Below, piece after piece: positions 23,243-42,914 of a DNA stretch of 64,000 nucleotides. Numbering within the stretch: position 1 is the first letter of the stretch; the number at the start of each line of letters is the position of its first letter. The stretch is from Oscillospiraceae bacterium (lineage in GTDB: Bacteria; Bacillota; Clostridia; Oscillospirales; Oscillospiraceae): contig JAFPWF010000017.1 of the NCBI GenBank assembly GCA_017395085.1, positions 1-64,000 on the forward strand. Direction: 5' to 3'. The notes below the pieces were generated by a model. It ran no database searches and had not been told where the DNA came from. It saw only the letters and a list, made by a program, of their open reading frames with translations. Position numbers and translations under genes: made by a program.

Positions 23243-26200
23243 GTGTTTTTGAGACTGGATAATGTGAATAAATCCTGGAGAGGCGGGTGGAAGCAAGTGA
23301 AGACAAACAAAGAGCTTTTTGCCGATTGGCTGTCCGAAATAGTTTCATCTTCCCGTGTGCCCGCCTGTTTGAGCGCTATGGATCTGATCCAGGAAATAGG
23401 GCATAAGAAGCATGTTTTCCAGGGAAATATTTATGATATTAAAGATCCCGAGATATCAAGAAAGCTGTTTTATACGATTCTGGAAGATGGATATTTATCC
23501 TTAATGCATAGTGAGAGTAAAAGAACGGTTAAGGATGTTGCCACTCTTTTCCACAAGTATATAAGTGAGAAGAATCCGGCAAGTGAAAAAGAGAAGGCGG
23601 TAAAGGTTGACACTCCTGCCGAGCAAGTTGTACGGCGGGAGAGAACCTACGTTCATGAAGATGTCGAAGAGTTCTATTCCTGGCTCAGCAGGAATGATTC
23701 TCTTTCTGCTACTGAATGCAAATCATTAGTGTCGGCACTGAGAGTCGCGGAACTGTTTGCGCAGGAAAACATTTCCGAGGGACTGGCACTGTTTTCTGAT
23801 GATCCTGATGTTGTCAATAAGACAATAGATTTGCTGTCTCAGGATCCGAACTTTAAAAGGAAGAATGATGAGCGTAAGGGAAGATATTTCATAGCTCTTG
23901 GGATTCTTCGTGCGTTCAATAACAGTAAAGAGAGTAAGGGAAATATGCCTGCAGCATCGAAAGTAGCAGAGGGGCAAGAGCAAATGGAAGATCCACTGCT
24001 GGCTTTAGTGATTAGCAAGGGAATTGAGTATATAGATAATCGGGGTAAAGGCGGTCGCCTCTGGTTAATCGGAGATCTTTCTCTGCGTGATAAAATATTA
24101 GAAATACAGGAAAAGGGCTATCGTTCGTTTTATATAGAGAGAGGGTGCAAGACGACTGGTTTTCGCAGTGCATGGTATGTGGATGTAAAGCCTGGGAGCA
24201 TGTATAAGAAAACAAAGGCTAAAGCTTCCGGTGATGAAAGGAAGAAAAAGGAAGCATCCAAATTACAGAAGCCCGCAGTAGAAAAAACGGCGGAAAAGAA
24301 GCAAAAAAAAGATGTTCTGATTGAACTGCTGAAGAGCAAAGGACTCAAATTTATTGACGACCGAACGAACGGCGGTCCGGTTTGGCTCATAGGGGGATTA
24401 GAACTTCAGGATGTAATAAGAAATCTTCGTGATGAGGGCTATTCTTTCTACTACAGTGTTGCCGGTACCGCAGCTACTGAATATCAAAGCGGCTGGTTTC
24501 TCGTAGAAAAATCGAGTGGTTCAAAAACTGGTTCTAAGCCCGAGGTGGGGAAAAAAGAAGCAGCAAAAAAACAAGGTAAAAGTGCTGCGGCATCGGTTGC
24601 TGCCGGACAGGGTAAGGCGATAAAACCGCAAGTTGCTGAGCAGGCGAAACAGGCTGCTCCGGCTAAGGTGATGTCTCCGAACCTCTGTAAATTGCTTGCC
24701 GATGATGATATGGCCGAATTGCGGGAGGAACTGGCTCGGCAGGGCGTCATCACGATGGATCAGTTTAAGACCGTTTCTCTCTGGCCTTTCTTAAACCGAT
24801 ATACGAATTATAGTATCAGTAAGCGGCAGGATATTATAAAGCGCATCAACAAGCGGCTTTGTAATCCTGCGCCGGTTGATACCTCGACACAATACTGCAT
24901 TAAAACTACAAATGCCAGATATTATGGCAATACGCCAGCGGAAGCTTTCGTAAGTTTCTGCGAGTATCTTGCGCAAAAATACCCTTTGAAAATCCGCACC
25001 TTAATCGGCGCACAGTATAACGGTCAGGGTTCCGTTGTCCTTTACAGGGAAGACCAAAAAGGCAATTCGCCGAGATTGACAAATCCGGTAGCGTACGTAA
25101 ATTCTGATTTGACTGAGCAGGCTGCTTTCCATTATGGCAAGTGGCTCAGTGAAATGTGTGGGGATAAAGACTATCCGGTAGAAGTAAAAAAACCTCGGGT
25201 CATCCCGCAGTACAATGATGTGAATCGGGATGCCGTAAAACAGAGTTCGGCAGCCTCAAAGCAAAAGACCGAACAGCGTGCCGGTTCTGTGAGCAGTTCT
25301 GCTCAAAAAACAAAAGCGACGGGCTCAGCAGCTTCAGCTGTCGCTTCATCCGATCAGGGAACTCAAACGGTAAGCAAAGCCGATATTACCAAGGTGGATC
25401 GTGCTGTTTTAAAAGCTGATCTGTCCGGTATCACAGTTGAAAAACTGAGTGAGAAAACTCAGTTTTCAGTTGCTGCAACGAGAAGAATAGTCGCTGCGGA
25501 TCCGAAGATCGTTCAACTTGGCGACAAGCTGGTGCATGAAAATGCATTTGTCGATTGGGAAGATGGCGCGGACAAGCTGGAAGAGATACTGGAGAAGCTG
25601 CTGGACAGAAATGACGGTTATATATCAGCGGCGAAACTATATGAATATGCGCGCTCCGAGATGTATATGTTCCTGAACGATAACGACATGGACGATGAAG
25701 GGTCAGTTTATGAATTGGCCCGGCATCTTTTTGAAAAAGTCGGCTATCATGGGAAAAAGCTGGTCTTTCAATCTAAGACTCATATTTCCCGCAATGAAGC
25801 TGCAGTTACAAGCGTTGTAGATTTGATCCATAACTTTGCACAGCCGGATGGTGGCTTTTTCCGCGAATCTGAATTGATTGAGTACCTGCAGAGCGTGGGT
25901 GTAAAAACAGGTAATCTGCGCGGCGGTTTGATGAAGGTATACACAGAACCGAGTTTTTTGTTCTATGATGAAGGTGTATTTCTGGAAGCAAAGTGCATCA
26001 GGATGGACGATGCCTGGTTTTCAGAGGTGAAGTCGGCGTTAGATAATTTGTTTAATGATCTTGGCGATCACATTGTAATCCGTGATATCCAGCCCTGGTG
26101 GTTTTATCAGTTGCCTGGGCTTCCCGGGGGAAAACAATGGACTCCGGTTTTGCTCCAGAGTGTATTGTACTTCTTCGGCGACAAGGTCGGTGGGGCGCGG

Positions 26201-26479
26201 ACAATTAAAGGTTTAAGTGGCCAGAGCGGTGACACGATTCATGCGATGTTGGTCAGCAAGGATAGCGAAATACAGACTTTCCCGGATGCGGTAGTGGCAG
26301 TTATAGTTGATGAGGGAATTCAGCAGAGGGATTTTGAGACGGAAGAATTGCGTCAGATTCTGATCAAGCGTGGTATGGTAGCAGGGAACGAACTGCTATA
26401 TACGATGCCCAAGGCGTTGGCTGATGACGGCCGTTTTGCATGGGATGCCGCTGGTCAGCGTGTGGTTGTGAAGGTGTGA
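23243..26479 (+). CDS. large hypothetical protein (1078 aa) with a tandem internal ~65-aa repeat and Lys-rich linkers
   Basis: Repeats KGIEYIDNRGKGGRLWLIGDLSL..GYRSFYIERG and KGLKFIDDRTNGGPVWLIGGLEL..GYSFYYSVAG. No catalytic motif recognised. The start may be the GTG at 23297. Confidence 0.5.
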   Translation: MFLRLDNVNKSWRGGWKQVKTNKELFADWLSEIVSSSRVPACLSAMDLIQEIGHKKHVFQGNIYDIKDPEISRKLFYTILEDGYLSLMHSESKRTVKDVATLFHKYISEKNPASEKEKAVKVDTPAEQVVRRERTYVHEDVEEFYSWLSRNDSLSATECKSLVSALRVAELFAQENISEGLALFSDDPDVVNKTIDLLSQDPNFKRKNDERKGRYFIALGILRAFNNSKESKGNMPAASKVAEGQEQMEDPLLALVISKGIEYIDNRGKGGRLWLIGDLSLRDKILEIQEKGYRSFYIERGCKTTGFRSAWYVDVKPGSMYKKTKAKASGDERKKKEASKLQKPAVEKTAEKKQKKDVLIELLKSKGLKFIDDRTNGGPVWLIGGLELQDVIRNLRDEGYSFYYSVAGTAATEYQSGWFLVEKSSGSKTGSKPEVGKKEAAKKQGKSAAASVAAGQGKAIKPQVAEQAKQAAPAKVMSPNLCKLLADDDMAELREELARQGVITMDQFKTVSLWPFLNRYTNYSISKRQDIIKRINKRLCNPAPVDTSTQYCIKTTNARYYGNTPAEAFVSFCEYLAQKYPLKIRTLIGAQYNGQGSVVLYREDQKGNSPRLTNPVAYVNSDLTEQAAFHYGKWLSEMCGDKDYPVEVKKPRVIPQYNDVNRDAVKQSSAASKQKTEQRAGSVSSSAQKTKATGSAASAVASSDQGTQTVSKADITKVDRAVLKADLSGITVEKLSEKTQFSVAATRRIVAADPKIVQLGDKLVHENAFVDWEDGADKLEEILEKLLDRNDGYISAAKLYEYARSEMYMFLNDNDMDDEGSVYELARHLFEKVGYHGKKLVFQSKTHISRNEAAVTSVVDLIHNFAQPDGGFFRESELIEYLQSVGVKTGNLRGGLMKVYTEPSFLFYDEGVFLEAKCIRMDDAWFSEVKSALDNLFNDLGDHIVIRDIQPWWFYQLPGLPGGKQWTPVLLQSVLYFFGDKVGGARTIKGLSGQSGDTIHAMLVSKDSEIQTFPDAVVAVIVDEGIQQRDFETEELRQILIKRGMVAGNELLYTMPKALADDGRFAWDAAGQRVVVKV

Positions 26480-26482
26480 TCT

Positions 26483-27151
26483 ATGGCTAATGCTAGTTTT
26501 ACAAGAGATGAAGCTATTCTTGCATTAGATGTGCTATATCGTTCTAGTGGGCAACTCCCGTCTGCAAATTCAGAAGAGATCAAAGAGCTTTGCGGAGTAT
26601 TACAAGAACTTCCTATTCATCCGAAAGAGAATCGGAGAGTTGATTTTAGGAATGAGAGTGGTGTGAGAAATCAATTAGCTCTTTTCAAAAAAAGTTTTAA
26701 AAAAGGAGAAAAGGATCCTAACGTTGGAGCTGTCTTTTATTCAATAGCGATCGAATTCGAGAACAATTTGGAAGAATTACATCGAATTGCTAATGGTATT
26801 CGTAAAAACGTGACCTGTTTTAACAACCTGTTTGGTTCCGACTCTGAAGATGAGGGTTTTCCGGAAGGTGTTCTACTTGGTCATGCATATCGTGTGATTG
26901 AAAGAAGAGATGGGAAAAAGTGTAAGCTTGAACAAAGGTGTTCAATTTGCCAGATTGAACCAGATGTAATGTACCAGAAGGGAGATAGAATTCTTGAAGC
27001 TCATCTGATAGTAGATCCCTGTGATATAGTAGTCTCAAAAAAGTATTCAGCGCGTTGCTTTATTACAGTATGCCCAACATGCCACGCTGCATTACATAAG
27101 TATAGACCTTGGTTAAAGAAAAATGATTGTTCAATAATACTCCGCAGATAA
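26483..27151 (+). CDS. HNH-type nuclease domain protein
   Basis: C-terminal CSICQ...EAHLIVDPCD...CPTCHAALHKY matches the Cys-pair plus His HNH arrangement. Coupled to the upstream gene with a 3-nt gap. Confidence 0.45.
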   Translation: MANASFTRDEAILALDVLYRSSGQLPSANSEEIKELCGVLQELPIHPKENRRVDFRNESGVRNQLALFKKSFKKGEKDPNVGAVFYSIAIEFENNLEELHRIANGIRKNVTCFNNLFGSDSEDEGFPEGVLLGHAYRVIERRDGKKCKLEQRCSICQIEPDVMYQKGDRILEAHLIVDPCDIVVSKKYSARCFITVCPTCHAALHKYRPWLKKNDCSIILRR

Positions 27152-27165
27152 AGGAGTGATAACCT

Positions 27166-29487
27166 GTGTACGGATATGAGTGGACTGAAGAGTACGGAAT
27201 ATTCCGTTTAACAATAAATGCCAAAGTTCAGAAAGAGATAAGACCTGTCTTCCATGAGGAACTAGATTTCTTTGGCATGGATCAATTTTGGAATTATCCA
27301 AAAGACACAGCTGCTCCTTTGTTATGGGCAGAAGGTGTTCGTAGATATATTTATAATGGAGAATGTGTAGCGGAGGCACAGGGAGGCGGAATATATAATA
27401 AGCCTAAGATAGTCCGTTATACAGAGGAAAGGCTGCAGTTAAAGCCAGTTGATGTCAATAGACTTTATGAGATCAACGAGCCGTTTATGGTTAGCCTTGA
27501 ACAGAAAGCAATTCATTTTATTCAGGAGCAATATGAAAAGTATAGACTAAAGCAATATGCTTTTATATGTGCTTTCTCAGGTGGTAAAGATTCCATATTA
27601 CTATTAGATCTGATTTCAAAAGCGTTAGCGCCAAGCGACTTCTATGTGGTTTTCAGCAATACAGGAATGGAGCTTAGCGATACATTAGAAGCAATTCGAA
27701 GAGCGCGAATCCATTGGTCAGAGTTGCGCTTTGAAGAGGCAAAATGCCATATGGAACCGACCGAAACATGGAAAGAAATAGGTCCGCCTGCAAGCCATTT
27801 GCGTTGGTGTTGTTCTGTTCATAAATCCGTACCAACTGTGCTGCTGATTCAAAATCTGGTGGGCAGAAACAGTAAAGTAGTTGTTTTTGACGGGGTACGT
27901 GGTGAAGAGAGTATTCGGCGTTCAAGATATGAAGAAGTCGGGGAAGGCGTTAAGAATTCAATCCAAATCAATTGCCATGCAATTTTAAAGTGGTCTTCAG
28001 CTGAAGTATTTATTTATCTGTTAAAGAATCAATTACTTTTTAATGATGCTTATAGACGTGGTATTTATAGGGTTGGTTGCAAAATCTGCCCAATGTCTTC
28101 TAAATGGCAAGATGCTCTAATCGCTGCTAATTATCCAGATGAAGTTGCAGATTCAATTCAACAGTTGGAAGAGATTACGGTTTATGCTAAAGGTCGTCTT
28201 GATAAAAAATACATAGAAGATGGTGGTTGGCAGTCCAGGGTAGGAGGAAAAATACTAAAACAAGGCGAAAACAGGGTACAAGAGGAGATTGATGGAGAAA
28301 AGCTTATCTTCAACTTAGTTCATTCAAGACAGAACTGGTTGGATGTTCTTCCTGTTTTTGGGAATGTTGTCGAGAAAAAAGAAAATGAGTATATGCTTCA
28401 TACAAAACACGGCGTATTTGAAATGGAGTATAGTGATATTGAGGGAACACAGACAATAATAATATCACCGTTTTCAAAGCTAGATCGATATGCCATTGGG
28501 GCATTACGTTCGCTTACAAATAAAACCGCATATTGTATCGGCTGTAATTCTTGTATTCCGCAATGCCCAGTAGGTGCATTTCAAATAATCGACGGAAGAA
28601 TAAAAATAAGAGAGTCCGCATGTATCCATTGTTATAATTGTTGTTATGCAATAGATCGTGGGTGCATGGTTGCAAAGAGTCTACATGTAAAGGGTGATAA
28701 TGTGGCTAATCCAGATAAATACCGCAATTTCGGATTTAGACAGGCATTTTACAGTCATTTTTGTGATAATGGCATCCAATGTTTCGAAATGGAAGTGTTG
28801 GGTAAAGATCAGTATAAAGCACTCAAACAATGGCTTGCTGAAGCAGGTGTATTGAAGAGAACACAAAAAGGGAATAAAGAGATTATCAATGCTGAATTGA
28901 CAGAATTAGGCGATAAACTCATTAGTTTTGGTCCGTATAATCCGTTCCCGTGGTCAATTATGTGGGCTAATCTTGCTTATAATTCTATTGTTTCTCGTAG
29001 TTTTTGCCTTAACGTAGATGTTGGAGAGACCTTTGATAGCGGTTTTCTTGTAAATTGTCTGGATAAGGATGTCGATGAAAAGTATAGAAAACAAGCGGTT
29101 AATTCCTTGTTGTCCACATTTAGAGATTCCCCAATTGGTGGAGCGATAAATCAGGGAATTAGTATTGATAAGAACTTGTATCTTCGCGCTGGTTGGGAGT
29201 ATCCGCATGCGGTGGCTTTGCTTTATGCGTCGTATCTCTATGCGGAGCATACAGGGCGCAGGAGCTTTACATTTACTGAACTGGTGAATGCGAAGAAGAA
29301 CTTCGATGCGCCCGGTATCTCGCCGGCAGATATTTATGCGATTGATGTGAAAAAGTTCCGGGAGATTGTGCAAGGCCTGGCGCTACAGTTTCCGCAGTAT
29401 ATCAGAGTTTCATTTGTGGCAAATCTGGATAATATCATTCTTGAAAAATATAGCTCATTAGAGATACTGGATCTGGCGGAAGAGTAA
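27166..29487 (+). CDS. brxP: BrxP-like PAPS-reductase/PP-loop ATP-pyrophosphatase (DndC-like) fused to a 2x[4Fe-4S] ferredoxin-like domain
   Basis: PP-loop motif SGGKDS (FICAFSGGKDSILLLD). CIGCNSCIPQCP and CIHCYNCCYAIDRGC cluster motifs. 773 aa. GTG start with an AAAGGAG RBS. Confidence 0.7.
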   Translation: MYGYEWTEEYGIFRLTINAKVQKEIRPVFHEELDFFGMDQFWNYPKDTAAPLLWAEGVRRYIYNGECVAEAQGGGIYNKPKIVRYTEERLQLKPVDVNRLYEINEPFMVSLEQKAIHFIQEQYEKYRLKQYAFICAFSGGKDSILLLDLISKALAPSDFYVVFSNTGMELSDTLEAIRRARIHWSELRFEEAKCHMEPTETWKEIGPPASHLRWCCSVHKSVPTVLLIQNLVGRNSKVVVFDGVRGEESIRRSRYEEVGEGVKNSIQINCHAILKWSSAEVFIYLLKNQLLFNDAYRRGIYRVGCKICPMSSKWQDALIAANYPDEVADSIQQLEEITVYAKGRLDKKYIEDGGWQSRVGGKILKQGENRVQEEIDGEKLIFNLVHSRQNWLDVLPVFGNVVEKKENEYMLHTKHGVFEMEYSDIEGTQTIIISPFSKLDRYAIGALRSLTNKTAYCIGCNSCIPQCPVGAFQIIDGRIKIRESACIHCYNCCYAIDRGCMVAKSLHVKGDNVANPDKYRNFGFRQAFYSHFCDNGIQCFEMEVLGKDQYKALKQWLAEAGVLKRTQKGNKEIINAELTELGDKLISFGPYNPFPWSIMWANLAYNSIVSRSFCLNVDVGETFDSGFLVNCLDKDVDEKYRKQAVNSLLSTFRDSPIGGAINQGISIDKNLYLRAGWEYPHAVALLYASYLYAEHTGRRSFTFTELVNAKKNFDAPGISPADIYAIDVKKFREIVQGLALQFPQYIRVSFVANLDNIILEKYSSLEILDLAEE

Positions 29488-29506
29488 ATCGGAAGGAGCT
29501 CATAAA

Positions 29507-32500
29507 ATGCCTACTGAAAAATACAACAGTTATCTGGAAATCAATCCGGCATTTGAGTCTGTCGTTGATATTGATGCAGATAAGCGTAATGTCAATTTGT
29601 GGCGGGAGTATATCGTTGGCGATGATATGGTTACGCTGGTGGATTTCCTTTGCCAGTCATTAGGTAATGAAGCGCCGGATCTGCGCCGCTCGTTCTGGAT
29701 CCATGGTTCATATGGTACAGGTAAAAGCTATGCCGCCGTGTTCGTGAAGCATCTGATAGAAGAAAAGCCTGAAGTGATTGATGCTTTTCTTGCCGGTTCC
29801 AGCCGCTTGTCACAGTATAAAAACAGGTTTGCAAAATGCCGTCGTAACGGGGATTATCTTGTCGTTTGGAAAACAGGCTGCACTGGGATCCGTTCCGGGG
29901 ATATGATGTTGCTGGAAGCCGAAAAGGCAATTCAGGATGCTCTTCTCGAGAAGTTCGGTGAGGATGCGAATCTGGGCAGCAGTTCTTTGATGGATGCCGT
30001 TAAAGCAAAGCTTTCTGACCGTACGATCAATTGGGACGTCCTTCTTGAGACAACGGTGTTGGGAGAGGATTATTCCAGCGTGGAAGAACTCCGGCATCTG
30101 GTTGAAGTAGGGGATTTGTCTGCGTTGAAGGCAACTGCATCCGTCATCAGACAGAAAGGTATGGGACTGGTCAACAATCTTGAGACCTTCAAAGCCTGGG
30201 TCAGCGATGTCATTGATGCCAACAATCTTTCAAAGAGCGGTATCTTCTTTATCTGGGATGAATTCACGGAGTATGTAGCGCATAGCGATGATCATACAGT
30301 CATGCAGCAGTTGTCTGAGTTCTGCAAAGAAAAGCCGTTATTTATGTTCTTTGTTGTCCATCGCTCTCAGGAAATGCTGGATAGCATGGGGAATGATCGT
30401 TATCAGATGATTACGCATCGCTTCCATCAGGTTGAATTCCATGTCAGTTCGGATGCGGCATTTGATCTGATTGCCGGTTCTATTACCACGAGAAACGGAA
30501 TGGAAGAGGCATGGAAGGAAGATAGAAAACTGGTCATTAAGACGATCAAGCCCTTCCTGCCGGATATGTCCGGACTGGATGACAAAATCAGTGAACAAAT
30601 AGATACGCTTTGCCCGATGCACCCAATGACAATTCGTTTGTTGTCGCGTGTGGCGGAGAGTTTTGCCGCGGCGCAGAGAACAATGTTCCGTTTCATGAAG
30701 GACCGTTCGAGTAATGAGCATGGCTTCCTGGGCTATATCAACAAATATGGGCCCGACGATCAAGCGTGCTGGCTGACGCCGGATTGGCTCTGGGATTATT
30801 TCTTTACCAGAGAAAGCGATTTCAACGACAAGGATACCAAAGCGGCAGAATTCATCCATCATTATGAAGAGAACCGGCATTTGGTTCAAAATGATGAGAA
30901 TGCTCTCAGAGTTTTTAAGGTATCCATGCTTCTTTTGGCGGTAATGTCATCGACAAAGGGTGTTTATGGCGGCACGAAAACACAGGGCGGCATTTCCTCA
31001 ACCGTTGACTGCCTTGTTAACTGTCTTGCAGGCGTCATGTCTAAAGGTCAGGTGAAAGATCTTCTGGATACGTTGAGCGAGAGCAAGCTCATTCTGCAGG
31101 ATGAGGCCGCAAATGGAGTGGTGCGGCTGCAGCTTCCGTTCCGCGGCGGCAGCGATGATGAATACAAAGTGCGCTATGATGCCAATGATAAGAAGTATAC
31201 ACGGTATCAGATGTTTTCTAAGGACGGCGTTTTTGCCCAGGAGATTGAGAAAAAGTCCTGGGATGAAAATGATGCGGCGTATAAGCGCATGAAGATCTGT
31301 GCCTGCTGTGCAGAGACTAATTCCATCAAGACGAGGCTGGACGAAATTCAAAAGGACCTGGCCAAGTTCCAGTATAAACTTGGGCTTCTCATCGTTACCG
31401 TTCGGGATGAAGCACAGTACATGTCAATTCAGAGCGATCTGGCGCAGCGTTCGCGTGAAATGAATGAACCCCGTCTCATGATTGCTCTTGTCAAGCAGCC
31501 GTTTACGGAGGAGGCTCGGAAGAACTGGCTTAAGAGCCTGACAAAGCAGGAAATTGCTTATGCAAGAGGGCAGACAGCCTCTGGCGGTCAGTATAAACAG
31601 GAAGCGGCATCTGGTATTGCCAGGTGGGTTGGTAGTGCAGTTAGCGGCAGTAAGATTATTGCATGGCATGGCGAACAGGTGTTCAACAACCTGTATGGCA
31701 TGGCACATCTTCGCAAGACGGTCCATACGGCGGTTCTTGAAACGCTTTTCCCGTATGCGCCAGAGAGCGTAGTAGTTACGAATACCGCGTATAAGCCCTG
31801 CAACGATTCGGCACCCGCGGCAGGTATTACCCGTCAGACGAATAATGCCCAGTTGAAGAGCGTGCTGAACAGCCTGAAGACGGCGGGGCTCCTTGATCTT
31901 GTTTCAATAGATAAGATGGCTGAAGCTTCCGGGAGTAAAGCGGCAGATTCTGTCAGCCAGCTTGCGCGCATGATTCGCGATTCAATGCAGTCCGGTCAGA
32001 GGGTCGTTTTGGGCGACCTCTGGGAAAACCTGCAGAAGCCGCCGTTTGGTTATTACAACACCATTGCCTGCGGTGTGCTCCTCGGGTATGTGTTCTCATG
32101 TTACAAAGACAGCGCTTACAGTTGGACGGACAATGCCCAGAGTACGCATGTTTTGGGCGAGAATACACTGAAAACAATGGTCCTGAATATGTGCAAAGGG
32201 ACCATGACCACGGATTATCTGTCTGCCGGTTCCGTCACGTTCCAGAAGTTCCGCGAATATGTGAAAAGAATCCTTCATTTAACGGATGCACAGGTCGCAA
32301 ATGAAACGGAGTGCTGGCATAATATGCGTGAAGCGGTGACTAAAGCAGGCGCTCCGCTTTGGACACTGAAGTATTTGCCGGACATGGGTTACGGCGGGGC
32401 TAACTATAAAGATGCTGCAATGAAGATTATCGACAGCATGCAGCAGTTTATTGCCCAGGAAGGTGATCGCGAAGCTGCCATGAACAGCGTTTTGCAGGAG

Positions 32501-33712
32501 TTTAACGGCCGGGGTAAATTGAGATCATCGCTTGAAAAAGCGTTTCACGACAAGAATGTCATGAACACTGCATTCCGGACATTCCTGTTCACGGTATCTC
32601 CCGAACTGAATGAGATTGCCACAAGGCTTTCAGTACAGCCGGAAGAGTTGAGCGATAAGCTGCATATGGTCATGCAGAATGCGATCTACACATGGACAGA
32701 AGACCAGGTCAAAGAAAAACTACCCGATGTCGTAAGCGATTACAGTTATCTGGATACACTTAATGGAGTGATGGGCAAGGTTTATCACAGCACGGATAGT
32801 GCCAAGAGAGATCTTGTCAATGTGTTCAAATTCCTGCGCATATCGTTGGCAGCGATTAAGAAGACAAATGTTGCGTGGTATCCGGCGTTGGAAATCCTGC
32901 ACAGAGTGTCCCAGAAAGGCACTGCACAGATGACAGCCGAAGAGCGGTCTGCAGAGGTCGAAGTGCTGAAGCAGCATGGGCAAAAAGCATATGATTGCCT
33001 GAAAGATGCCAAGCCCGTTCTTGCGGAAGTGCTGGAGTCCGAGGGGATCGAGTGCACAAAACCGGAACTTGACTCGATTTATGCCAATTTGAAGGACATG
33101 CCCTGTGATGCAAGCCTTTCTCAGTTTGAGAAGGAACTGAAGTCTCAGATTAGTAAGATCAGTCACGCGAGAAATAGGGTACTTCTGAAAGAACGCTGGT
33201 TTATTCTTACAGGTGAAGACAGTGTCAAAAACTGGTGTAAAACTCACAGCGTCCCGCTTCTCTGGATTTTAGAACGCGATCAGCAGAAGGCGGTCAGAAC
33301 ATTGATAGAAGTGCAGAACGGGGAAAGAACTCTGGATCAGAACGTGCAGTTCGCTCTCGAAACTTTGGGCACAATGGATACTTCGATTCTTACAGATAAC
33401 GCCCGGATTGAAAAAGCGTTTATAGAAACTGTCGGTGAAGAGTATAGGAGTATTTACGAGGAAGAGCGTGATGTCCTGATTGCACAGGCGAAAATGAAGT
33501 TTGGCAATGATATGAGCGCCTGGAATATCAGTGATCTTGCGGTTCTTCAGAAAATGCTGAAACAGGCGCAGCAGGAAAAGGCCAAGAAAGAAAAACTGGC
33601 AAAGGCAAAAAGCTACGCGGAGGAAATGGATGCGTCCCTGTTGCGCAATCGTGTTGTTGCCTTCATGGAGAATCATCCGGAGTATTGTGACGACTTTACA
33701 AAAGAGCGGTAA
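29507..33712 (+). CDS. brxC: BrxC/PglY-like large P-loop ATPase
   Basis: Walker A GSYGTGKS near the N-terminus. Walker B-like IFFIWDEF. 1401 aa, typical of BrxC. Confidence 0.65.
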   Translation: MPTEKYNSYLEINPAFESVVDIDADKRNVNLWREYIVGDDMVTLVDFLCQSLGNEAPDLRRSFWIHGSYGTGKSYAAVFVKHLIEEKPEVIDAFLAGSSRLSQYKNRFAKCRRNGDYLVVWKTGCTGIRSGDMMLLEAEKAIQDALLEKFGEDANLGSSSLMDAVKAKLSDRTINWDVLLETTVLGEDYSSVEELRHLVEVGDLSALKATASVIRQKGMGLVNNLETFKAWVSDVIDANNLSKSGIFFIWDEFTEYVAHSDDHTVMQQLSEFCKEKPLFMFFVVHRSQEMLDSMGNDRYQMITHRFHQVEFHVSSDAAFDLIAGSITTRNGMEEAWKEDRKLVIKTIKPFLPDMSGLDDKISEQIDTLCPMHPMTIRLLSRVAESFAAAQRTMFRFMKDRSSNEHGFLGYINKYGPDDQACWLTPDWLWDYFFTRESDFNDKDTKAAEFIHHYEENRHLVQNDENALRVFKVSMLLLAVMSSTKGVYGGTKTQGGISSTVDCLVNCLAGVMSKGQVKDLLDTLSESKLILQDEAANGVVRLQLPFRGGSDDEYKVRYDANDKKYTRYQMFSKDGVFAQEIEKKSWDENDAAYKRMKICACCAETNSIKTRLDEIQKDLAKFQYKLGLLIVTVRDEAQYMSIQSDLAQRSREMNEPRLMIALVKQPFTEEARKNWLKSLTKQEIAYARGQTASGGQYKQEAASGIARWVGSAVSGSKIIAWHGEQVFNNLYGMAHLRKTVHTAVLETLFPYAPESVVVTNTAYKPCNDSAPAAGITRQTNNAQLKSVLNSLKTAGLLDLVSIDKMAEASGSKAADSVSQLARMIRDSMQSGQRVVLGDLWENLQKPPFGYYNTIACGVLLGYVFSCYKDSAYSWTDNAQSTHVLGENTLKTMVLNMCKGTMTTDYLSAGSVTFQKFREYVKRILHLTDAQVANETECWHNMREAVTKAGAPLWTLKYLPDMGYGGANYKDAAMKIIDSMQQFIAQEGDREAAMNSVLQEFNGRGKLRSSLEKAFHDKNVMNTAFRTFLFTVSPELNEIATRLSVQPEELSDKLHMVMQNAIYTWTEDQVKEKLPDVVSDYSYLDTLNGVMGKVYHSTDSAKRDLVNVFKFLRISLAAIKKTNVAWYPALEILHRVSQKGTAQMTAEERSAEVEVLKQHGQKAYDCLKDAKPVLAEVLESEGIECTKPELDSIYANLKDMPCDASLSQFEKELKSQISKISHARNRVLLKERWFILTGEDSVKNWCKTHSVPLLWILERDQQKAVRTLIEVQNGERTLDQNVQFALETLGTMDTSILTDNARIEKAFIETVGEEYRSIYEEERDVLIAQAKMKFGNDMSAWNISDLAVLQKMLKQAQQEKAKKEKLAKAKSYAEEMDASLLRNRVVAFMENHPEYCDDFTKER

Positions 33713-33744
33713 TTCTTATTCCATATTACGAGGGGCGTTTGAGC

Positions 33745-36096
33745 ATGACAGTTGATCAGGTAATTCAAGATTTGATGAAGGAAAAACAGCTCGGTGTTCC
33801 TTCACGTTTCCCTTGTCGGGCCATCATGGTCAAGAACATAGAGGATTATTCTGAGTTGCTTTCCAAACTGAACAGAATCCCGGATGTTTCATTTGTCCTT
33901 TCCGCCGATCTGTTTCCTTCTGCAGATGTTATGCCGCGCTTTGAAAAACTGAGGGATGAAAAATATCGCGATCAGTGGTTGATTCTGCCTGGTGTCAGTG
34001 AGTATCTGCGCCTGTTCAATAAAAGCGAAGCGGATACGCAGCGCTTTGCGAAACTGTGGAATGGCCAGGTGCCGGCAACCAGTAAAGGGAGAATTCTGAT
34101 TCCGTTATGGGGCTGCGAAGCTCAGTGGTATGATAAAGCGCTTCATCTTTGTGAAGATGAACGTCAGCTGGACTATTACTATGATTGCATAAACGAAAAC
34201 TCAGAGGAACAGCATCTCAATCTTACCGTGTTGTCCGGCGAATTCGAACAGTATGTTTTCCAGCTTTCTGCCAGAAACAGCAGTATTTGTTTTGGTTTGC
34301 AGGATTGGTACGATTATTGGGCGGAAGCGGACAGGATTCGTGAAGAGCAGATTTTGCTGACGAAACGGTATGCAACGATCCAGCCTACAAGCGGGAGTAT
34401 TCGGATCCGGGTAATCAGCGACAGCCTCTCGTTTATTCGTGAAAATATGCCTGGTGCAGAGATGCTGGATGATGAAGTGTGTCCAAAACAGGCGCAGGAT
34501 TTGCTGTTTGATTACGCACTTCATGACTGCACGCTGGATGATGCGATTCTGGCAATCCTGAATGCCAACAAGTTCGTGGGCAAAGAAGTTATGAGCAAAT
34601 GGAGCATCATGGGCCATGGAGAAAAGTATCTGGTAGTTCTTTGGCTGAAATTGCACGAAAAAGACGATTATCTTTGCCATTGTGTTTCAAAAGCAAAAAA
34701 TGTAGATGATATCCCGGAACATATCCTGCATGATGTTTTTGGTATGTATCGCACATATCCGAAATGGATCGCCGAGAGCCAGGAACTCGTCAATGCCATG
34801 GGCCTTGAAAGAGATGAGGATTACTTCAAAGCCCTGGATGAAATACCGGCATATGAAGACAGACTTCAGTTTCTTTCTGGGAAGGACAGGAACGACAGGA
34901 TATATTTGCTCAGACTTGTCGGCAAATGGCTCCGCTTGGATTCTGATCAGGTGTTTGCATCAAAGGAACTGGCCAGTATGTATCCGGCTCTTTTTGCCTA
35001 TCTTGATGAGTCCGCTTATGACAGCGATCTGAGCAGATATTTCTCGCTTTATAAGGCCCATAAGCTTGAGAATTCCCTTCCAGAAGATGAAGATTTGTAT
35101 TTCAGCGGTATACAGCCAGAGGATTATGATTTCCGATATGCTCAGCTGAGCAGCGAACTGACAGATGATTGCGTTATTCTCTGGGTCGATGCATTGGGCG
35201 CAGAATGGTTGCCGCTGCTTCTTTCAAAGCTGAAACAGGATAAAAAAGGAAAGATTAAGAAGTACGAGGTGGTACAGGCGACCCTGCCTACGGAAACCTG
35301 CTTCAATGATCAGTGGAATCAGATTGATGCACCGTATAAAAAACTGGATCTTCTGGACAAGTTGGCACATAAAGGCGTGATCGATGAGCCCGATTATTAT
35401 ACCTGTATCGAGGAGCAGCTTTCGTTTGTGTCCGGTATTCAGAGGAAAGTCGATGAGCTCCTGAAAGAATACCACCGTGTCATCATTACCGGCGATCACG
35501 GGACAAGCCGGTTGGCAGCACGCTTCTTCCATAAAAGGAGCGGTGCAAGTGTGCCTCATGGTGCAAAGGTTTGCAGTCATGGTCGCTACTGCCAGATACA
35601 GCCACAGACCGTTCTCACTCAGCCTGATATAGTCCTGGTTAAGGATAAAGCGGGAAATCAGTATGCTGTTTTCAATAATTATGATCATTTTATCCAGTCT
35701 GGTTTTGCAGCTGGTGCCGATGATGATAATGCGATTTACGGTGAAGTTCATGGTGGCGCAACGCCGGAGGAGATGCTGGTTCCGCTTATCGTGTTTGACA
35801 GCAATCAGGAGATTCCTCTAAAGGCTGAATGGCAAAGCAGCATGGTCAAGATCATGGCAAAAAAGGCGAAAGCGACGCTGAAGTTTAATCGCCCGGTAAA
35901 CAGTCTGAATGTTAGGATCGGCGCTGTCTTGGGTACAAGTTCGCAGACAGCCGACAGCAGGGTATGGACTGTTGAGTTCCGGGGGGTTGAACCCAAAACG
36001 CATAATGTCACTGTTGCAGCAAACGGAGCTCTTGTTCAGGTTGAGATGCTGACGATTAAACCGGCGTTGGGTGGCGGAGAAGGAGATCTCCCATGA
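33745..36096 (+). CDS. pglZ: PglZ-domain (alkaline-phosphatase superfamily) protein
   Basis: VILWVDALGAEWLPLL metal-site block and ITGDHGTSR motif, characteristic of PglZ/alkaline-phosphatase fold. 785 aa. Confidence 0.6.
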   Translation: MTVDQVIQDLMKEKQLGVPSRFPCRAIMVKNIEDYSELLSKLNRIPDVSFVLSADLFPSADVMPRFEKLRDEKYRDQWLILPGVSEYLRLFNKSEADTQRFAKLWNGQVPATSKGRILIPLWGCEAQWYDKALHLCEDERQLDYYYDCINENSEEQHLNLTVLSGEFEQYVFQLSARNSSICFGLQDWYDYWAEADRIREEQILLTKRYATIQPTSGSIRIRVISDSLSFIRENMPGAEMLDDEVCPKQAQDLLFDYALHDCTLDDAILAILNANKFVGKEVMSKWSIMGHGEKYLVVLWLKLHEKDDYLCHCVSKAKNVDDIPEHILHDVFGMYRTYPKWIAESQELVNAMGLERDEDYFKALDEIPAYEDRLQFLSGKDRNDRIYLLRLVGKWLRLDSDQVFASKELASMYPALFAYLDESAYDSDLSRYFSLYKAHKLENSLPEDEDLYFSGIQPEDYDFRYAQLSSELTDDCVILWVDALGAEWLPLLLSKLKQDKKGKIKKYEVVQATLPTETCFNDQWNQIDAPYKKLDLLDKLAHKGVIDEPDYYTCIEEQLSFVSGIQRKVDELLKEYHRVIITGDHGTSRLAARFFHKRSGASVPHGAKVCSHGRYCQIQPQTVLTQPDIVLVKDKAGNQYAVFNNYDHFIQSGFAAGADDDNAIYGEVHGGATPEEMLVPLIVFDSNQEIPLKAEWQSSMVKIMAKKAKATLKFNRPVNSLNVRIGAVLGTSSQTADSRVWTVEFRGVEPKTHNVTVAANGALVQVEMLTIKPALGGGEGDLP

Positions 36097-36293
36097 GCAG
36101 GAAAAAGGTATGCTGTGATTGCGGCAGGTCGTTAAAAAAAGATGAAGTTGCGCTGACGAAGAAGCTGATTGATATCGATTCGGAAGAATTCTATTGCTTG
36201 GATTGTATGGCCGATTTTATCGGTTGTTCGGTTCAGGATCTGAAAGAAAAAATTCAGGAATTCAAAGAGCAGGGTTGCACCCTGTTCCTGTGA
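36093..36293 (+). CDS. small zinc-ribbon protein, translationally coupled to pglZ
   Basis: 66 aa. CCDCGRS...YCLDCM. The start overlaps the pglZ stop. Confidence 0.4.
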   Translation: MSRKKVCCDCGRSLKKDEVALTKKLIDIDSEEFYCLDCMADFIGCSVQDLKEKIQEFKEQGCTLFL

Positions 36294-36305
36294 CGGAGGG
36301 CTAAT

Positions 36306-37766
36306 ATGCTGGAAGATAAAGTCAGGGAAGTATTTGCTGATATGATTGTTTTGAAAGACCCGCAACGCAGCGAGTATTTTTCAAATCTCAGTATTCCCTC
36401 ATATATGCGCGATTGGCTGGTCATGAAGTTTTCGGATGAAGACGGTTCGATTGACTACGACAGCGTTCGTCGTTATATCAAGCGGTACATTCCGAGTCGT
36501 GAGGACTTCGAGCAGTACAAGTTCCAGATGGTAAATGGTGAAATTGTTCAGTTTCTTGCCCGTGTTCGTGTTTCTGTCGATGTTAAGCGTGGTAAGACAA
36601 TGTTTGAACTGCCGGATTTCGGCGGTTCAAGAGGCGGTGCTGCCGGTGTCGTTGCTTATGATGTGGCTGAAGAGTGGCAGGAAACGCTGCTCCGCGAGAG
36701 CGAAAACTGGGGTATTGTCACATTATCCTGGGTTATGGAGGGGACACCATCCAATCCAAAGGGCGTTATCAGCATGGTAGATTACAGGCCGTTCTGCCCG
36801 TATTCAGTTGATCTGGAAGTTTATCGCGAAGCCCGGCGTGAATTTGACATTCATGAGTGGATTGATACGGTAATCCGGGCTGTGGATTATAATCCGGACG
36901 GTTACTGCGACAAGGATGGCAATGTGAGCGAGGAGACAAAGCTCTTCTTTCTGAGAAGGCTTCTGCCGTTTGTTGAGAAACGGGTTAACTTGATTGAGCT
37001 TGCTCCAAAAGGCACAGGCAAAAGCTACGTTTTTGAAAAAATCAGCAAACGCGGCTGGCTGATCAGCGGTGGTACTGTATCAAGGGCGTCTCTCATTTAT
37101 GATAATGCCAAGAAAACCGGCGGGTTGCTGACACGATTTGATTATGTCGGCTTTGATGAAGTGCAGTCCATCACATTTGAGCAGCCAGGTCAGATCCAAC
37201 AGGCGTTGAAACACTATATGGAATTTGGCGAGATTAAAGGCTTCGATGCCATGCTAACGGCGGATGCGGGCGTTATTGTTCTTGGCAACATTAACGCAGA
37301 TCGCTTTGATATCAATAAAAACATGGTTGAGCATATCAGTGATGTGTTTGGTGAATCTGCAACCTTGGACCGTTTCCACGGGTTTATCCCTGGATGGGAG
37401 ATCCCGAGAATGACTACGGGGATGATCGCCAAAGGCTGGGCGATTAATACGGAATATTTCGCAGAAGTGATGCATGCGCTTCGGGATGATCTGAGTTACG
37501 CGGCTATTGTGGATGAGCTGATTGATTATCCCTCAAACGCAGATAAACGCCATATGACCGCAATTAAACGTCTGTGCACTGCTTTTATGAAGCTTTTGTT
37601 CCCGCATGTTCAATCGGTAGAGGATATTGATAAGCAGGACTTTATCAAGTATTGTCTGAATCCCGCTATAGAGATGCGGTCGGTTATCTACAGGCAGCTC
37701 TGCATTATCGATCCGAAAGAATATAATGTGAAAAGCAAGCAGATACCTGAAGTTGTTTGTGTGTGA
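36306..37766 (+). CDS. brxL: BrxL-like AAA+ ATPase (N-domain + ATPase; appears to lack a Lon-protease-like C-terminal domain)
   Basis: N-terminal MLEDKVREVFADMIVLKD..YMRDWLVMKF resembles the BrxL N-terminus. Walker A APKGTGKS. Walker B YVGFDEVQS. Only 486 aa. Confidence 0.5.
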   Translation: MLEDKVREVFADMIVLKDPQRSEYFSNLSIPSYMRDWLVMKFSDEDGSIDYDSVRRYIKRYIPSREDFEQYKFQMVNGEIVQFLARVRVSVDVKRGKTMFELPDFGGSRGGAAGVVAYDVAEEWQETLLRESENWGIVTLSWVMEGTPSNPKGVISMVDYRPFCPYSVDLEVYREARREFDIHEWIDTVIRAVDYNPDGYCDKDGNVSEETKLFFLRRLLPFVEKRVNLIELAPKGTGKSYVFEKISKRGWLISGGTVSRASLIYDNAKKTGGLLTRFDYVGFDEVQSITFEQPGQIQQALKHYMEFGEIKGFDAMLTADAGVIVLGNINADRFDINKNMVEHISDVFGESATLDRFHGFIPGWEIPRMTTGMIAKGWAINTEYFAEVMHALRDDLSYAAIVDELIDYPSNADKRHMTAIKRLCTAFMKLLFPHVQSVEDIDKQDFIKYCLNPAIEMRSVIYRQLCIIDPKEYNVKSKQIPEVVCV

Positions 37767-37786
37767 TTGTTTAAGGGGAGTTCATT

Positions 37787-38902
37787 TTGATTTATGCTGA
37801 CAACGCGGCCACAACAAGAATGGATCTTGCCGCTTATCATGCTATGCAGTCCTGGCTTCAGGTAGAATACGGGAATGCATCGCAGCCGTATTCTTATGCC
37901 CGGAAACCGAAACAGGCGCTTGCAAATGCACGGGAGATCATAGCGGCTTGTATCAACGCTCAACCGGATGAGATATATTTCACTTCCGGTGGAACGGAAA
38001 GCGATAACTGGGTGATTAAAAGTTCGGCTTTCTCTGATCCGGATCATCGTGAGACAATAACGACAGCTTTCGAGCATCATGCTGTTTTGAATTCGTGCGC
38101 GGTGATTGAGCGGCTGGGGTATCCGGTTTCTTATCTTATGCCAGATGAAAGTGGCAAGGTGTTGCCGGAGGCTCTCAGGGCTAAAATCACAGACAGGACC
38201 AGACTTGTTTCCGTCATGTTCGCGAATAATGAGATCGGGAGCATTCAACCGATTCGCGAGTTGTGTTCCGTGGCGCATGAGCATGGCGCGTTGTTCCATA
38301 CCGATGCGGTGCAGGCTGTAGGGCATGTGAAGATTGATGTCAAAGAACTGGGAGTTGATTTTCTCTCTTCTTCCGCTCATAAATTCAATGGCCCGAAGGG
38401 AATAGGTTTTCTCTATATTCGCAACGGCGCTGATTTACTGCCCTACATGGACGGCGGTGCGCAGGAAAAGAAGCATCGTGCAGGGACAGAAAACATTGCT
38501 GCAATATCGGGTATGGCGGAAGCATTAAAGGGAAATTGTGAGTACATGGAGCAGAATGAGGAACACATACGCGGTCTGGAAACCATGATCCTTAATGCCC
38601 TCTCAGCTGCCGGCGTTCGGTTTCAACGCAACGGCGGGGATTATACTCTGCCGGGGTTGATGAGTTTGTCATTCCCCGGGTTTTCAGGTGAAGCGATTCT
38701 TCACAGGATGGATTTGATGGGGATTTGCATATCAACCGGGTCGGCTTGCGACAGTGTAAATACGGAGATTTCTCATGTACTGAGGGCCATTAATCTGGAA
38801 GACTCCCTGGCAACGGGGACAGTTCGAATCTCGCTGGGCAAGTTCAATACAGTTGAAGATGCTGCTAGGATTTCTGAGTCGCTGATCAGAATCGTAAAGT
38901 AA
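37787..38902 (+). CDS. cysteine desulfurase (class V aminotransferase, NifS/IscS/DndA-like)
   Basis: IYADNAATT..., FTSGGTESDN, PLP-lysine region SSAHKFNGPKGIGFLY, and active-site Cys region GSAC. 371 aa. Confidence 0.8.
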   Translation: MIYADNAATTRMDLAAYHAMQSWLQVEYGNASQPYSYARKPKQALANAREIIAACINAQPDEIYFTSGGTESDNWVIKSSAFSDPDHRETITTAFEHHAVLNSCAVIERLGYPVSYLMPDESGKVLPEALRAKITDRTRLVSVMFANNEIGSIQPIRELCSVAHEHGALFHTDAVQAVGHVKIDVKELGVDFLSSSAHKFNGPKGIGFLYIRNGADLLPYMDGGAQEKKHRAGTENIAAISGMAEALKGNCEYMEQNEEHIRGLETMILNALSAAGVRFQRNGGDYTLPGLMSLSFPGFSGEAILHRMDLMGICISTGSACDSVNTEISHVLRAINLEDSLATGTVRISLGKFNTVEDAARISESLIRIVK

Positions 38903-38924
38903 GTACCGGAAAGTTGGTTTTGCT

Positions 38925-41843: not shown

Positions 41844-41877
41844 AGAACCGTTATCGTAAGTGCCGGGGGGTGCTTTT

Positions 41878-42801
41878 GTGGCGAAGGACAACAGACAGAA
41901 GATTAAGCTTTTGTATCTCATGGAGATGCTGCGGCAGGATACGGACGAGCAGCACCCGCTGACTACCAGTGAGATCTGCAGGCGGCTGGGGGTGAAGGGC
42001 ATCACCTGCGAGCGGCGCACCGTCGGCATGGATATGAAGGTGCTGAATGATTTCGGATACGAGGTCATGTCCTGCACGGTCGGGCATGAAAAGGCCTACT
42101 ATGTGGACGACCGCAGTTTTTCCGTACCGGAGATCAAGATTCTCATGGACGCGGTGCAGGCGGCAAAGTTCATCACGCCGGGAAAGAGTGATGCGCTGGT
42201 TTCAAAACTCGCCGCACTGGGCGGCAGCCATCAGGCGGAGATCCTGAAGAGCAACATCGTCTGTTTCAACACGCGCAAGCACACCAACGAGATGATTTTC
42301 TATAATGTTCAGGCGTTGGAGGATGCGATCCGGGAGCGGAAAAAGGCTTCGTTTCTGTACTTCGACCTGAATGAGAAGCGGGAGCGGGTATACCGCAGGG
42401 ACGGCGCGAGGTACGTGGTGGATCCCATGGCGCTCGTGTACGACGAGGACAATTATTATCTCCTGTGCTACAATCTGAAGCACGAAAACGTGACCACCTA
42501 CAGGGTAGATCGGATGGAACGGGTTTGCGTGGAAGAGGAGGATGTCTGCCCGCAGGCAATTGTGGAAAGGGACATCCACGGCTACACTTCGCAGGTCTTC
42601 AAGATGTTCAACGGCGAAGCGAAGGAGTTTACCATCGTGTTTGACGAGTCCCTGCTCGGAGCGGTTTATGACCGGTTTGGGGAAGAGGTCGAAGTCCGGC
42701 GGGTCGGGGAGAAGCTCTGCAGCATTACGGTCACCGTGCAGGACAGCCCGGTGTTCCGTGGCTGGCTTGCGCAGTTCGGCGATCTGGTTAACATCGCATA
42801 A
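41878..42801 (+). CDS. second WYL-domain transcriptional regulator (paralog of the gene at 22180; high-GC copy)
   Basis: N-terminus KIKLLYLMEMLRQDTDEQHPLTTSEICRRL parallels RILYILQILQEGSDQEHPVTIVEIITQL. About 300 aa. Confidence 0.6.
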   Translation: MAKDNRQKIKLLYLMEMLRQDTDEQHPLTTSEICRRLGVKGITCERRTVGMDMKVLNDFGYEVMSCTVGHEKAYYVDDRSFSVPEIKILMDAVQAAKFITPGKSDALVSKLAALGGSHQAEILKSNIVCFNTRKHTNEMIFYNVQALEDAIRERKKASFLYFDLNEKRERVYRRDGARYVVDPMALVYDEDNYYLLCYNLKHENVTTYRVDRMERVCVEEEDVCPQAIVERDIHGYTSQVFKMFNGEAKEFTIVFDESLLGAVYDRFGEEVEVRRVGEKLCSITVTVQDSPVFRGWLAQFGDLVNIA

Positions 42802-42891: not shown

Positions 42892-42914
42892 TTTTGAGAA
42901 GCAGAGGTGTCTGT

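Follow-up and report, generated by a model that had tools for sequence, protein, structure and literature searches.

The presence of a PP-loop sulfurtransferase and a cysteine desulfurase in one predicted defence operon raised the question of whether the operon marks its host's DNA with sulfur rather than with methyl groups, and whether the desulfurase belongs to the system. The operon lies in the stretch of DNA that we analysed (the window; 64,000 nucleotides of an Oscillospiraceae MAG). A first-pass annotation of this DNA had proposed that a BREX-4 module installs phosphorothioate (PT) instead of methylation and that the operon desulfurase is the sulfur source.

As shown in Table 1, the plus strand from 27166 to 38902 encodes BrxP, BrxC, a type-4 PglZ, a 66-aa zinc-finger protein, BrxL, and a class-V cysteine desulfurase. 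The coordinates place these genes in an operon-like array with intergenic gaps of -4 to 26 nt, on an island with a GC content of 0.38 to 0.49 compared to about 0.6 in the flanks. All four genes that define BREX type 4 (brxP, brxC, pglZ, and brxL) were present with matches at or above curated thresholds, and BrxP, with its PAPS-reductase domain, stood in the place of the PglX methyltransferase. Pfam matched none of the ten proteins spanning 22180 to 41401 to a methyltransferase. Based on its gene families, we assigned the locus to the type 4 BREX phage-defence operons, on a low-GC island of a gut or rumen Oscillospiraceae bacterium. The genes and motifs named in the first-pass annotation (SGGKDS, CxxCxxCxxxCP, and SSAHKF) were all located where it had placed them, with significant family matches.

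Table 1. Predicted features of the BREX-4 locus and its surroundings (positions in the window)
Feature	Coordinates	Strand	Evidence
WYL/WCX transcriptional regulator, BrxR-like, at the head of the locus	22180..23154	+	Pfam WYL E=6.4e-13, WCX E=9.6e-6
Promoter-like site (predicted)	23205-23233		TTGTTA-17-TATAAT with TG
Large DNA-binding protein (predicted), clade-conserved BREX-4 companion	23243..26479	+	
Small McrA-like HNH nuclease candidate, accessory gene	26483..27151	+	Motifs, weak structural matches
BrxP, PP-loop PAPS-reductase-family sulfurtransferase, SspD/DndC-like	27166..29487	+	PADLOC BrxP E=7.2e-207, residues 1-763
BrxC/PglY P-loop ATPase, SspC homologue	29507..33712	+	PADLOC BrxC 1.7e-62, SspC 1.5e-28
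PglZ (BrxZ), type-4 variant	33739..36096	+	NCBIfam NF033445 (BREX_PglZ_4) E=4.8e-79, 266.8 bits vs cutoff 140
66-aa zinc-finger protein, CxxC...CxxC	36093..36293	+	ORF/translation; gene call on public contigs
BrxL, short form (BrxL_N + MCM-like AAA+, no Lon domain)	36306..37766	+	TIGR02688 409.2 bits vs cutoff 329.3
Group-I (NifS/IscS-type) class-V cysteine desulfurase, 371 aa	37787..38902	+	Pfam Aminotran_5 E=4.6e-77, 259.9 bits
RuvB-N-like AAA+ ATPase	38925-40007	+	Pfam RuvB_N 2.8e-26
Coiled-coil J-domain protein with HPD	40007-41401	+	Pfam DnaJ 1.3e-6
HIRAN-domain protein	41361-41843	+	Pfam HIRAN 2.8e-14
Second WYL/WCX regulator, island edge	41860..42801	+	Pfam WYL 2.7e-13

In the predicted architecture of BrxP, an alpha+beta linker joins the PAPS-reductase domain to a ferredoxin-like region rich in cysteine, and an SspB/DUF4007-like domain, predicted to bind DNA, lies at the C-terminus. 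The Pfam PAPS_reduct match covered residues 134 to 309 (E=2.4e-22; 80.2 bits, cutoff 22.5), with the SGGKDS PP-loop at residues 138 to 143 (nt 27577-27594) and additional CC/CxxC pairs in the domain; Pfam Fer4_10 also matched the protein (2.3e-5). The CxxCxxCxxxCP motif (CIGCNSCIPQCP) occupied residues 457 to 468 (nt 28534-28569) and was followed by a second group of cysteines at positions 486, 489, 492, 493, and 500. Thus, the ferredoxin-like motif reported in the first-pass annotation was present, but it was central rather than C-terminal, and the SspB/DUF4007-like region came after it at residues ~517 to 763 (PADLOC PDLC02511, E=6e-15; Pfam DUF4007 only E=0.037). A ferredoxin-type Cys-rich region is attributed to BrxP in the BREX-4 section of a 2026 survey in NAR (PMC12839542). 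Compared to the BrxP model, the other PADLOC models gave E values of 2.7e-9 (SspD) and 3.6e-9 (DndC), and the DndC equivalog TIGR03183 scored 31.5 bits against a cutoff of 290.4.

BrxC began 19 nt after BrxP and carried an N-terminal match to DUF6079 (E=4.2e-8) and the Walker A motif GSYGTGKS at residue 67. PglZ also matched the PADLOC PglZ model (9.3e-28), and BrxL matched Pfam BrxL_ATPase (4.6e-105) and BrxL_N (2e-23). The zinc-finger gene between PglZ and BrxL, which shares 4 nt with the end of PglZ, had been overlooked in the first-pass annotation. Its product was present in all 19 related loci that reached its position (50 to 83% identity), and it corresponds to the "small zinc-finger protein" that the BREX-4 section of the survey reports with the desulfurase (PMC12839542).

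The PT-BREX-4 concept and its link to a desulfurase are already known. Yuan et al. (Nat Commun 2026; PMC12914056) used genetics and LC-MS to show that brxP and brxC make PT. Specifically, Bacteroides salyersiae contained PT dinucleotides that disappeared when brxC was deleted, and such dinucleotides also came from brxPCZL strains in which neither dnd nor ssp was complete. Together, brxP, mcrA, and brxC reconstituted them in a host whose cysteine desulfurase function was assumed to come from its housekeeping SufS (PMC12914056). According to the BREX-4 section of the NAR survey, 255 of 457 type-4 BREX taxa (56%) have a desulfurase, a "sixth component" accompanied by a small zinc-finger protein (PMC12839542). 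The desulfurase of our locus agreed with this description in its class-V PLP fold, PLP lysine, catalytic cysteine loop, and conserved BREX-4 placement with the zinc-finger gene, a pairing found in the same 56% of surveyed taxa.

The locus resembled these systems in other respects. It had the four core genes in the order given for the validated systems (PMC12914056) and in that section of the survey (PMC12839542), a BrxP with PAPS-reductase, ferredoxin-like, and DUF4007-like parts, and a BrxR-like WYL regulator and a McrA/HNH-type gene in the operon. The validated systems come from Bacteroidota, with B. salyersiae as host (PMC12914056), in contrast to the Oscillospiraceae MAG analysed here. The two 2026 papers cover the chemistry as well as its tie to a desulfurase, so we regard the locus as an ordinary new example, through which a class shown to write PT gains a member from a gut or rumen MAG of the Clostridia. 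It is also a compact, full cassette (regulator, DNA-binding protein, HNH, BrxPCZL, zinc-finger protein, and its own desulfurase) that suits heterologous tests of whether a dedicated desulfurase is required for PT synthesis or only boosts it, given that the validated reconstitution was assumed to rely on SufS.

The desulfurase gene began 20 nt past BrxL. Its product had a PLP lysine at K199 (in SSAHKF) and a catalytic cysteine at C321 (in GSAC), and it lacked the ~35-residue C-terminal tail of IscS, aligning to residues 5 to 366 of 404. PADLOC matched it to DndA (2.1e-123) and SspA (3.1e-123). Its affinity to DndA, SspA, IscS, and NifS was judged by score comparison. The best NCBIfam model was NifS (TIGR03402, 418 bits), below the cutoff of 530.75, and the scores for DndA (TIGR03235, 317.7 bits; cutoff 480) and IscS (TIGR02006, 293 bits; cutoff 643) also fell below their cutoffs. 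Among solved structures, IscS and NifS proteins (233 to 268 bits) scored above SspA (201.5) and DndA (197). These scores place the protein among the group-I enzymes, where it probably works like DndA and SspA but lies outside both curated equivalogs.

The NifS model at the top of the list and the generic IscS/NifS structures among the best matches could indicate a housekeeping gene that merely adjoins the BREX-4 operon. This grouping does not discriminate, however, because the desulfurase scores nearer to IscS/NifS than to DndA/SspA and yet is linked to BREX. The order BrxP-BrxC-PglZ-BrxL-desulfurase was kept in all 12 related loci that extended far enough to cover it (various Clostridia and Negativicutes MAGs), and the desulfurase directly followed BrxL in 6 of 6 sampled nearest homologues (69 to 72% identity, one in a Bacteroidaceae MAG). 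The gene sample skews toward gut and rumen metagenomes. A linkage this regular, which like the gene content and the motifs was seen directly, is not due to chance. In addition, BREX-linked desulfurases were 49 to 68% identical between loci and diverged at about the rate of PglZ and BrxP, which fits a system component better than a conserved housekeeping gene. The position within the low-GC island, the scores under the NifS and IscS equivalog cutoffs, and the missing IscS tail also argue against a housekeeping role, as does the lack of a NifU/IscU-type partner in the operon or nearby in the family profiles of the locus proteins. No paralogue of the desulfurase was found in the window. We consider a housekeeping identity extremely improbable, and synteny effectively rules it out. 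The linkage thus argues for an enzyme dedicated to the BREX-4 system and, together with the survey's BREX-4 section (PMC12839542), supports the proposal that it is the sulfur source.

A dedicated enzyme might mainly serve Fe-S cluster assembly or repair in BrxP, the ferredoxin-like region included, instead of donating sulfur directly to DNA; such a role would be compatible with PT marking. The CxxCxxCxxxCP motif, the second cysteine group, and the CC/CxxC pairs of the PAPS-reductase domain point in this direction. In contrast, the operon has no NifU/IscU-type scaffold gene, and the Dnd/Ssp models, as presented in the survey's BREX-4 section, give the same enzyme the persulfide sulfur supply for PT as well (PMC12839542). 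The two roles are not separable by sequence, and we hold a mainly Fe-S role to be possible but somewhat unlikely. It is also conceivable that BrxP and the desulfurase install a different sulfur modification of DNA or RNA, such as a thiolated base, and not backbone PT. The PP-loop/PAPS-reductase-family enzymes ThiI, MnmA, and TtcA thiolate tRNA bases (PMC12914056), and the survey's BREX-4 section gives no settled role for the alpha+beta and ferredoxin-like extras of BrxP (PMC12839542). This idea seems very unlikely in view of the PT dinucleotides from the brxPCZL strains and from the brxP, mcrA, and brxC reconstitution (PMC12914056). Moreover, the BrxP of our locus aligns with the whole of the BrxP model and is partnered by an SspC homologue, BrxC.

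Our preferred reading, to which we assign a probability of roughly 85%, is that the operon marks host DNA with PT instead of methyl groups, using sulfur from its own desulfurase. The first part of this reading, sulfur marking by BREX-4 in place of methylation, matches the experiments on homologous brxPCZL systems (PMC12914056). For this locus, the modification chemistry, the transfer of sulfur, and restriction are inferred from homologous systems, namely Dnd/Ssp and the validated BREX-4 of Bacteroides. The PLP-dependent desulfurase would draw sulfur from L-cysteine, form a persulfide on Cys321, and hand the sulfur to BrxP. The PP-loop of BrxP would use ATP to activate the target, and the Fe-S/ferredoxin-like region and C-terminal SspB-like domain would act on the DNA. 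The BrxC ATPase would be required alongside BrxP for PT at short sequence motifs. PglZ, the principal nuclease effector according to the literature, would attack DNA without the mark together with BrxL and, optionally, the HNH nuclease, and the WYL protein would control the operon.

A similar division of labour is found in SspABCD (Xiong et al. 2020, as summarized in PMC12914056), which has a desulfurase (SspA), a PAPS-reductase protein (SspD), a DUF4007 protein (SspB), and a DUF6079 ATPase (SspC). In our locus, BrxP combines the SspD- and SspB-like parts in a single protein rather than having them encoded separately, PglZ and BrxL take the place of the partners SspE/SspFGH, and the desulfurase is distant from the solved SspA (201.5 bits). 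The DndABCDE system likewise has a NifS-like desulfurase (DndA) beside a PP-loop Fe-S sulfurtransferase (DndC) and an ATPase partner, but BrxP is only remotely similar to the DndC equivalog and the desulfurase does not reach the cutoff for DndA. No match to DndB, DndD, or DndE was among the PADLOC, Pfam, and NCBIfam results for the operon proteins.

The regulator at the head of the locus shares 58% identity with the WYL gene found after the desulfurase in related loci L018-L021. It ends 88 nt before the next gene, and this gap holds the region's best promoter-like site, the only well-placed one in a promoter and terminator scan whose results were not above those for shuffled sequence. The next gene encodes a protein with a variable, Lys-rich N-terminal part that contains two repeated winged-helix-like modules, and a conserved C-terminal array of winged-helix domains (~370 aa). 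Given a public gene call of 1060 aa, translation probably starts near 23297. A homologue search with the full-length 1078-aa query returned only the query itself, probably because of low-complexity linkers, and the family was recovered via aligned locus translations and by searching exhaustively with the C-terminal domain as query. The multi-winged-helix family counts 335 representatives. The gene lies upstream of BrxP throughout the clade, sometimes with the small HNH gene, and is an addition relative to the BREX-4 section of the survey, which makes no mention of it (PMC12839542). The HNH candidate, found in 5 of 14 related loci, has an N-terminal helical domain matching homeodomain-like HTH folds and a C-terminal CxxC...H...CPxCH...H motif. 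A sulfur-binding (SBD) domain was considered for this protein and was unsupported, given the HTH matches of its N-terminus and a Foldseek E value of only 3.6 for ScoMcrA. The gene precedes BrxP, and Yuan et al. cloned brxP, mcrA, and brxC as one block (PMC12914056).

Downstream of the desulfurase, co-oriented genes for a RuvB-N-like ATPase, a J-domain protein, and a HIRAN protein are tightly packed (gaps of 22, -1, and -41 nt). Their membership in the BREX-4 operon is uncertain. The trio was found in the window locus only; in the related BREX-4 loci, the desulfurase is followed by WYL or other genes. No relatives of the AAA and J-domain proteins were found in JGI metagenomes, viral contigs, or plasmids, where the RuvB-like ATPase half matched only genuine ruvB genes, and a literature search for HIRAN and J-domain defence systems found nothing relevant. 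It is possible, but unlikely, that the multi-winged-helix and HNH proteins are a reader/effector pair for PT-free DNA and that the trio is a new defence or accessory module. If so, the trio could, for instance, recruit DnaK/Hsp70 and sense 3' DNA ends, and the parts of the locus absent from the 2026 papers would be new functional layers of PT-based BREX. The second WYL regulator, which follows the trio, had a GC content of 0.56, near the flank value, and just 33% identity to the WYL genes of the related loci.

The locus from 22180 to 42801 comprised 13 genes, all on the + strand, with gaps of -41 to +26 nt from the second gene through the last. It occupied most of an island (~18-42 kb) with a GC content of about 0.41-0.49, as judged from the composition of the window; the flanks were at ~0.6. 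The same gene arrangement recurred on several public metagenome contigs. All of the genes and motifs named in the first-pass annotation were present and gave significant matches in PADLOC, Pfam, and NCBIfam.

Genes of the locus and the matches used to name them
Gene product	Position	Strand	Basis
WYL/WCX regulator	22180-23154	+	family match
1078-aa protein	23243-26479	+	without family match
222-aa protein (putative HNH gene)	26483-27151	+	without family match
BrxP	27166-29487	+	PADLOC BrxP, Pfam PAPS_reduct
BrxC	29507-33712	+	SspC/DUF6079 homologue
PglZ	33739-36096	+	NCBIfam BREX-4 PglZ
66-aa zinc-finger ORF	36093-36293	+	CxxC...CxxC
BrxL	36306-37766	+	TIGR02688
Class-V cysteine desulfurase	37787-38902	+	Aminotran_5
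RuvB-N-like AAA+ protein	38925-40007	+	family match
J-domain protein	40007-41401	+	family match
HIRAN protein	41361-41843	+	family match
Second WYL regulator	41860-42801	+	family match

The match of BrxP to the PADLOC BrxP model was full-length (E=7e-207), and its Pfam PAPS_reduct match had E=2.4e-22. Residues 138-143 were SGGKDS, and residues 457-468 were CIGCNSCIPQCP, with a further cysteine group downstream. The ferredoxin-like motif previously placed at the C terminus was located in the middle of the protein. The last 250 residues matched a second BrxP model (PDLC02511) and showed a weak likeness to DUF4007/SspB (E=0.037). A recent BREX survey (PMC12839542) describes a Mog1p/PsbP-like domain and a ferredoxin-type cysteine-rich region in BrxP. 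BrxC carried a Walker A motif at residue 67, and PglZ and BrxL scored above their NCBIfam BREX-4 PglZ and TIGR02688 cutoffs, respectively.

The small zinc-finger gene between PglZ and BrxL had been overlooked. Its start overlapped the PglZ stop by 4 nt, and it was kept, at 50-83% identity, in all 19 related BREX-4 loci that reached its position; in the related locus L016, it was placed between BrxL and the desulfurase. It corresponds to the small zinc-finger protein that, according to PMC12839542, co-occurs with the BREX-4 desulfurase.

The desulfurase matched Aminotran_5 with E=4.6e-77, and its PLP lysine and catalytic cysteine were K199 (SSAHKF) and C321 (GSAC), respectively. BrxP relatives were sought in one genome per species. 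The 15 loci that carried one came from gut and rumen MAGs of Clostridia and Negativicutes, and BrxP identities were 54-70% where the match was substantial. The order BrxP-BrxC-PglZ-BrxL-desulfurase was kept in all 12 related loci of sufficient length. The best 120 database relatives of the desulfurase were at 69-72% identity, and all six that were looked up, one of them from a Bacteroidaceae MAG, lay directly 3' of BrxL in a BREX-4 locus. No second desulfurase was found within the window. Hence, the desulfurase truly belongs to the BREX-4 system.

Its scores were 233-268 bits against generic IscS/NifS structures, compared to 201.5 against solved SspA and 197 against DndA, and it fell under the NCBIfam equivalog cutoffs of NifS, DndA, and IscS. 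Its alignment to E. coli IscS (404 residues) spanned only IscS residues 5-366, so the desulfurase lacks the IscS C-terminal tail. Taken with the synteny, the IscS/NifS-leaning scores and sub-cutoff equivalog matches show that the desulfurase is a group-I enzyme recruited to BREX-4, outside the curated DndA family. The discriminating evidence is its gene neighbourhood; grouping with housekeeping NifS/IscS genes, which the first-pass annotation would have counted against a role in marking, is not a fair criterion.

Yuan et al. (PMC12914056) established BREX-4 as a phosphorothioate (PT)-writing system. PT dinucleotides were detected in Bacteroides salyersiae and other brxPCZL strains without complete dnd or ssp sets, brxC deletion abolished PT, and PT was reconstituted in B. 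thetaiotaomicron by brxP, mcrA, and brxC with the host cysteine desulfurase present. In addition, brxP could not be deleted, which suggests attack on unmodified self DNA. PMC12839542 reports that 255 of 457 type-4 BREX taxa have a cysteine desulfurase, which could be a sixth core component. The proposal that this BREX-4 module marks DNA with sulfur through its operon desulfurase was thus supported, with minor corrections, by the homologue experiments of PMC12914056 and by conserved synteny. The idea is right, yet already published: the PT function and the desulfurase partner were both described in 2026, so the locus is a further uncharacterised BREX-4 example of low novelty.

By homology, the cassette is most likely a PT modification and defence system; the PT chemistry was demonstrated in homologues and would extend to this locus. 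The desulfurase would take sulfur from cysteine to form a persulfide on C321. The predicted acceptor is BrxP, in which a PP-loop ATP pyrophosphatase domain is joined to an Fe-S/ferredoxin-like region and an SspB-like DNA-binding domain; BrxP would act on DNA with BrxC as its partner. Unmarked DNA would then be the target of PglZ, BrxL, and optional nucleases. In an alternative explanation, compatible with this one, the desulfurase would chiefly assemble the Fe-S clusters of BrxP, a role in cluster assembly having been reported for DndA and DndC; by sequence, this explanation is inseparable from sulfur donation for PT marking.

The C-terminal ~370-residue domain of the 1078-aa protein was found directly upstream of BrxP, or of the HNH gene and BrxP, in 13 of 14 BrxP-related loci (the exception was L013), and family members at only 31-34% identity were placed likewise. 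This family had 335 cluster representatives; the domain was always C-terminal, behind N-termini of very varied length. A confident structure model (pLDDT 94.2) showed a chain of winged-helix domains in which no enzyme fold was found. The protein may correspond to the gene labelled "unknown" in the B. salyersiae operon; no counterpart was found in section 34 of PMC12839542. The 222-aa protein was 100% identical to a hypothetical protein from an Oscillospiraceae bacterium MAG. Only 5 of the 14 related loci had the putative HNH gene, which is therefore accessory. Among the BREX auxiliary effectors, PMC12839542 counts HNH nucleases, some of them linked to modified-DNA readers.

Packed directly 3' of the desulfurase were the AAA+, J-domain, and HIRAN genes (38925-41843, + strand). 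The RuvB-N-like AAA+ protein had a Walker A motif at residue 63 and a novel C-terminal half, and the J-domain protein had a coiled coil and an HPD motif at 339. Among the three, the HIRAN protein alone matched a PADLOC candidate model (PDC-M03B, 1.7e-9). The trio was absent from related BREX-4 loci, where the desulfurase is followed by a WYL gene or by other defence genes, and no relatives of it were found in metagenome, viral, and plasmid scans. It may be part of the BREX unit or a separate inserted system. Two WYL/WCX regulators bracketed the locus. The upstream one, at 58% identity, was orthologous to the WYL gene that lies 3' of the desulfurase in related loci L018-L021; the downstream one had only 33% identity to the WYL genes of related loci and a flank-like GC content of 0.56.

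The neighbourhood looks like a defence island beside a phage-like module. Upstream on the + strand were three genes of defence-island type, encoding a 903-aa TPR-TIR-DUF6273 protein (11718-14429), a DUF2971 protein matching PADLOC PDC-S31 (14764-15693), and an SPFH/Band-7 protein that carries double zinc ribbons (15686-17521). The downstream region (42837-52116) resembles a replication module of a phage-like or mobile element. It began with a LexA-like S24 peptidase (42837-43517), followed by an HTH and M78/ImmA-like pair (about 43600-44863). Sigma factors were also present, and the - strand encoded a sigma-70 factor together with a family-A DNA polymerase (47038-49038), an HNH_3 protein, and an Enc34-type ssDNA-binding protein.

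Relaxase/integrase or TraG/Toprim genes adjoined the related BREX-4 loci L016 and L018. On related contigs (L029 10153-16514; L031), the genes 3' of the BREX-4 desulfurase were other defence genes, among them GmrSD_N/DUF262, HEPN RiboL-PSP, HipA, Shedu SduA_C, and Ser/Thr kinase genes. In L031, BrxL, the small ORF, and the desulfurase alone remained, beside an inserted element with ParB-methylase and SNF2 genes, which suggests decay or rearrangement of BREX-4.
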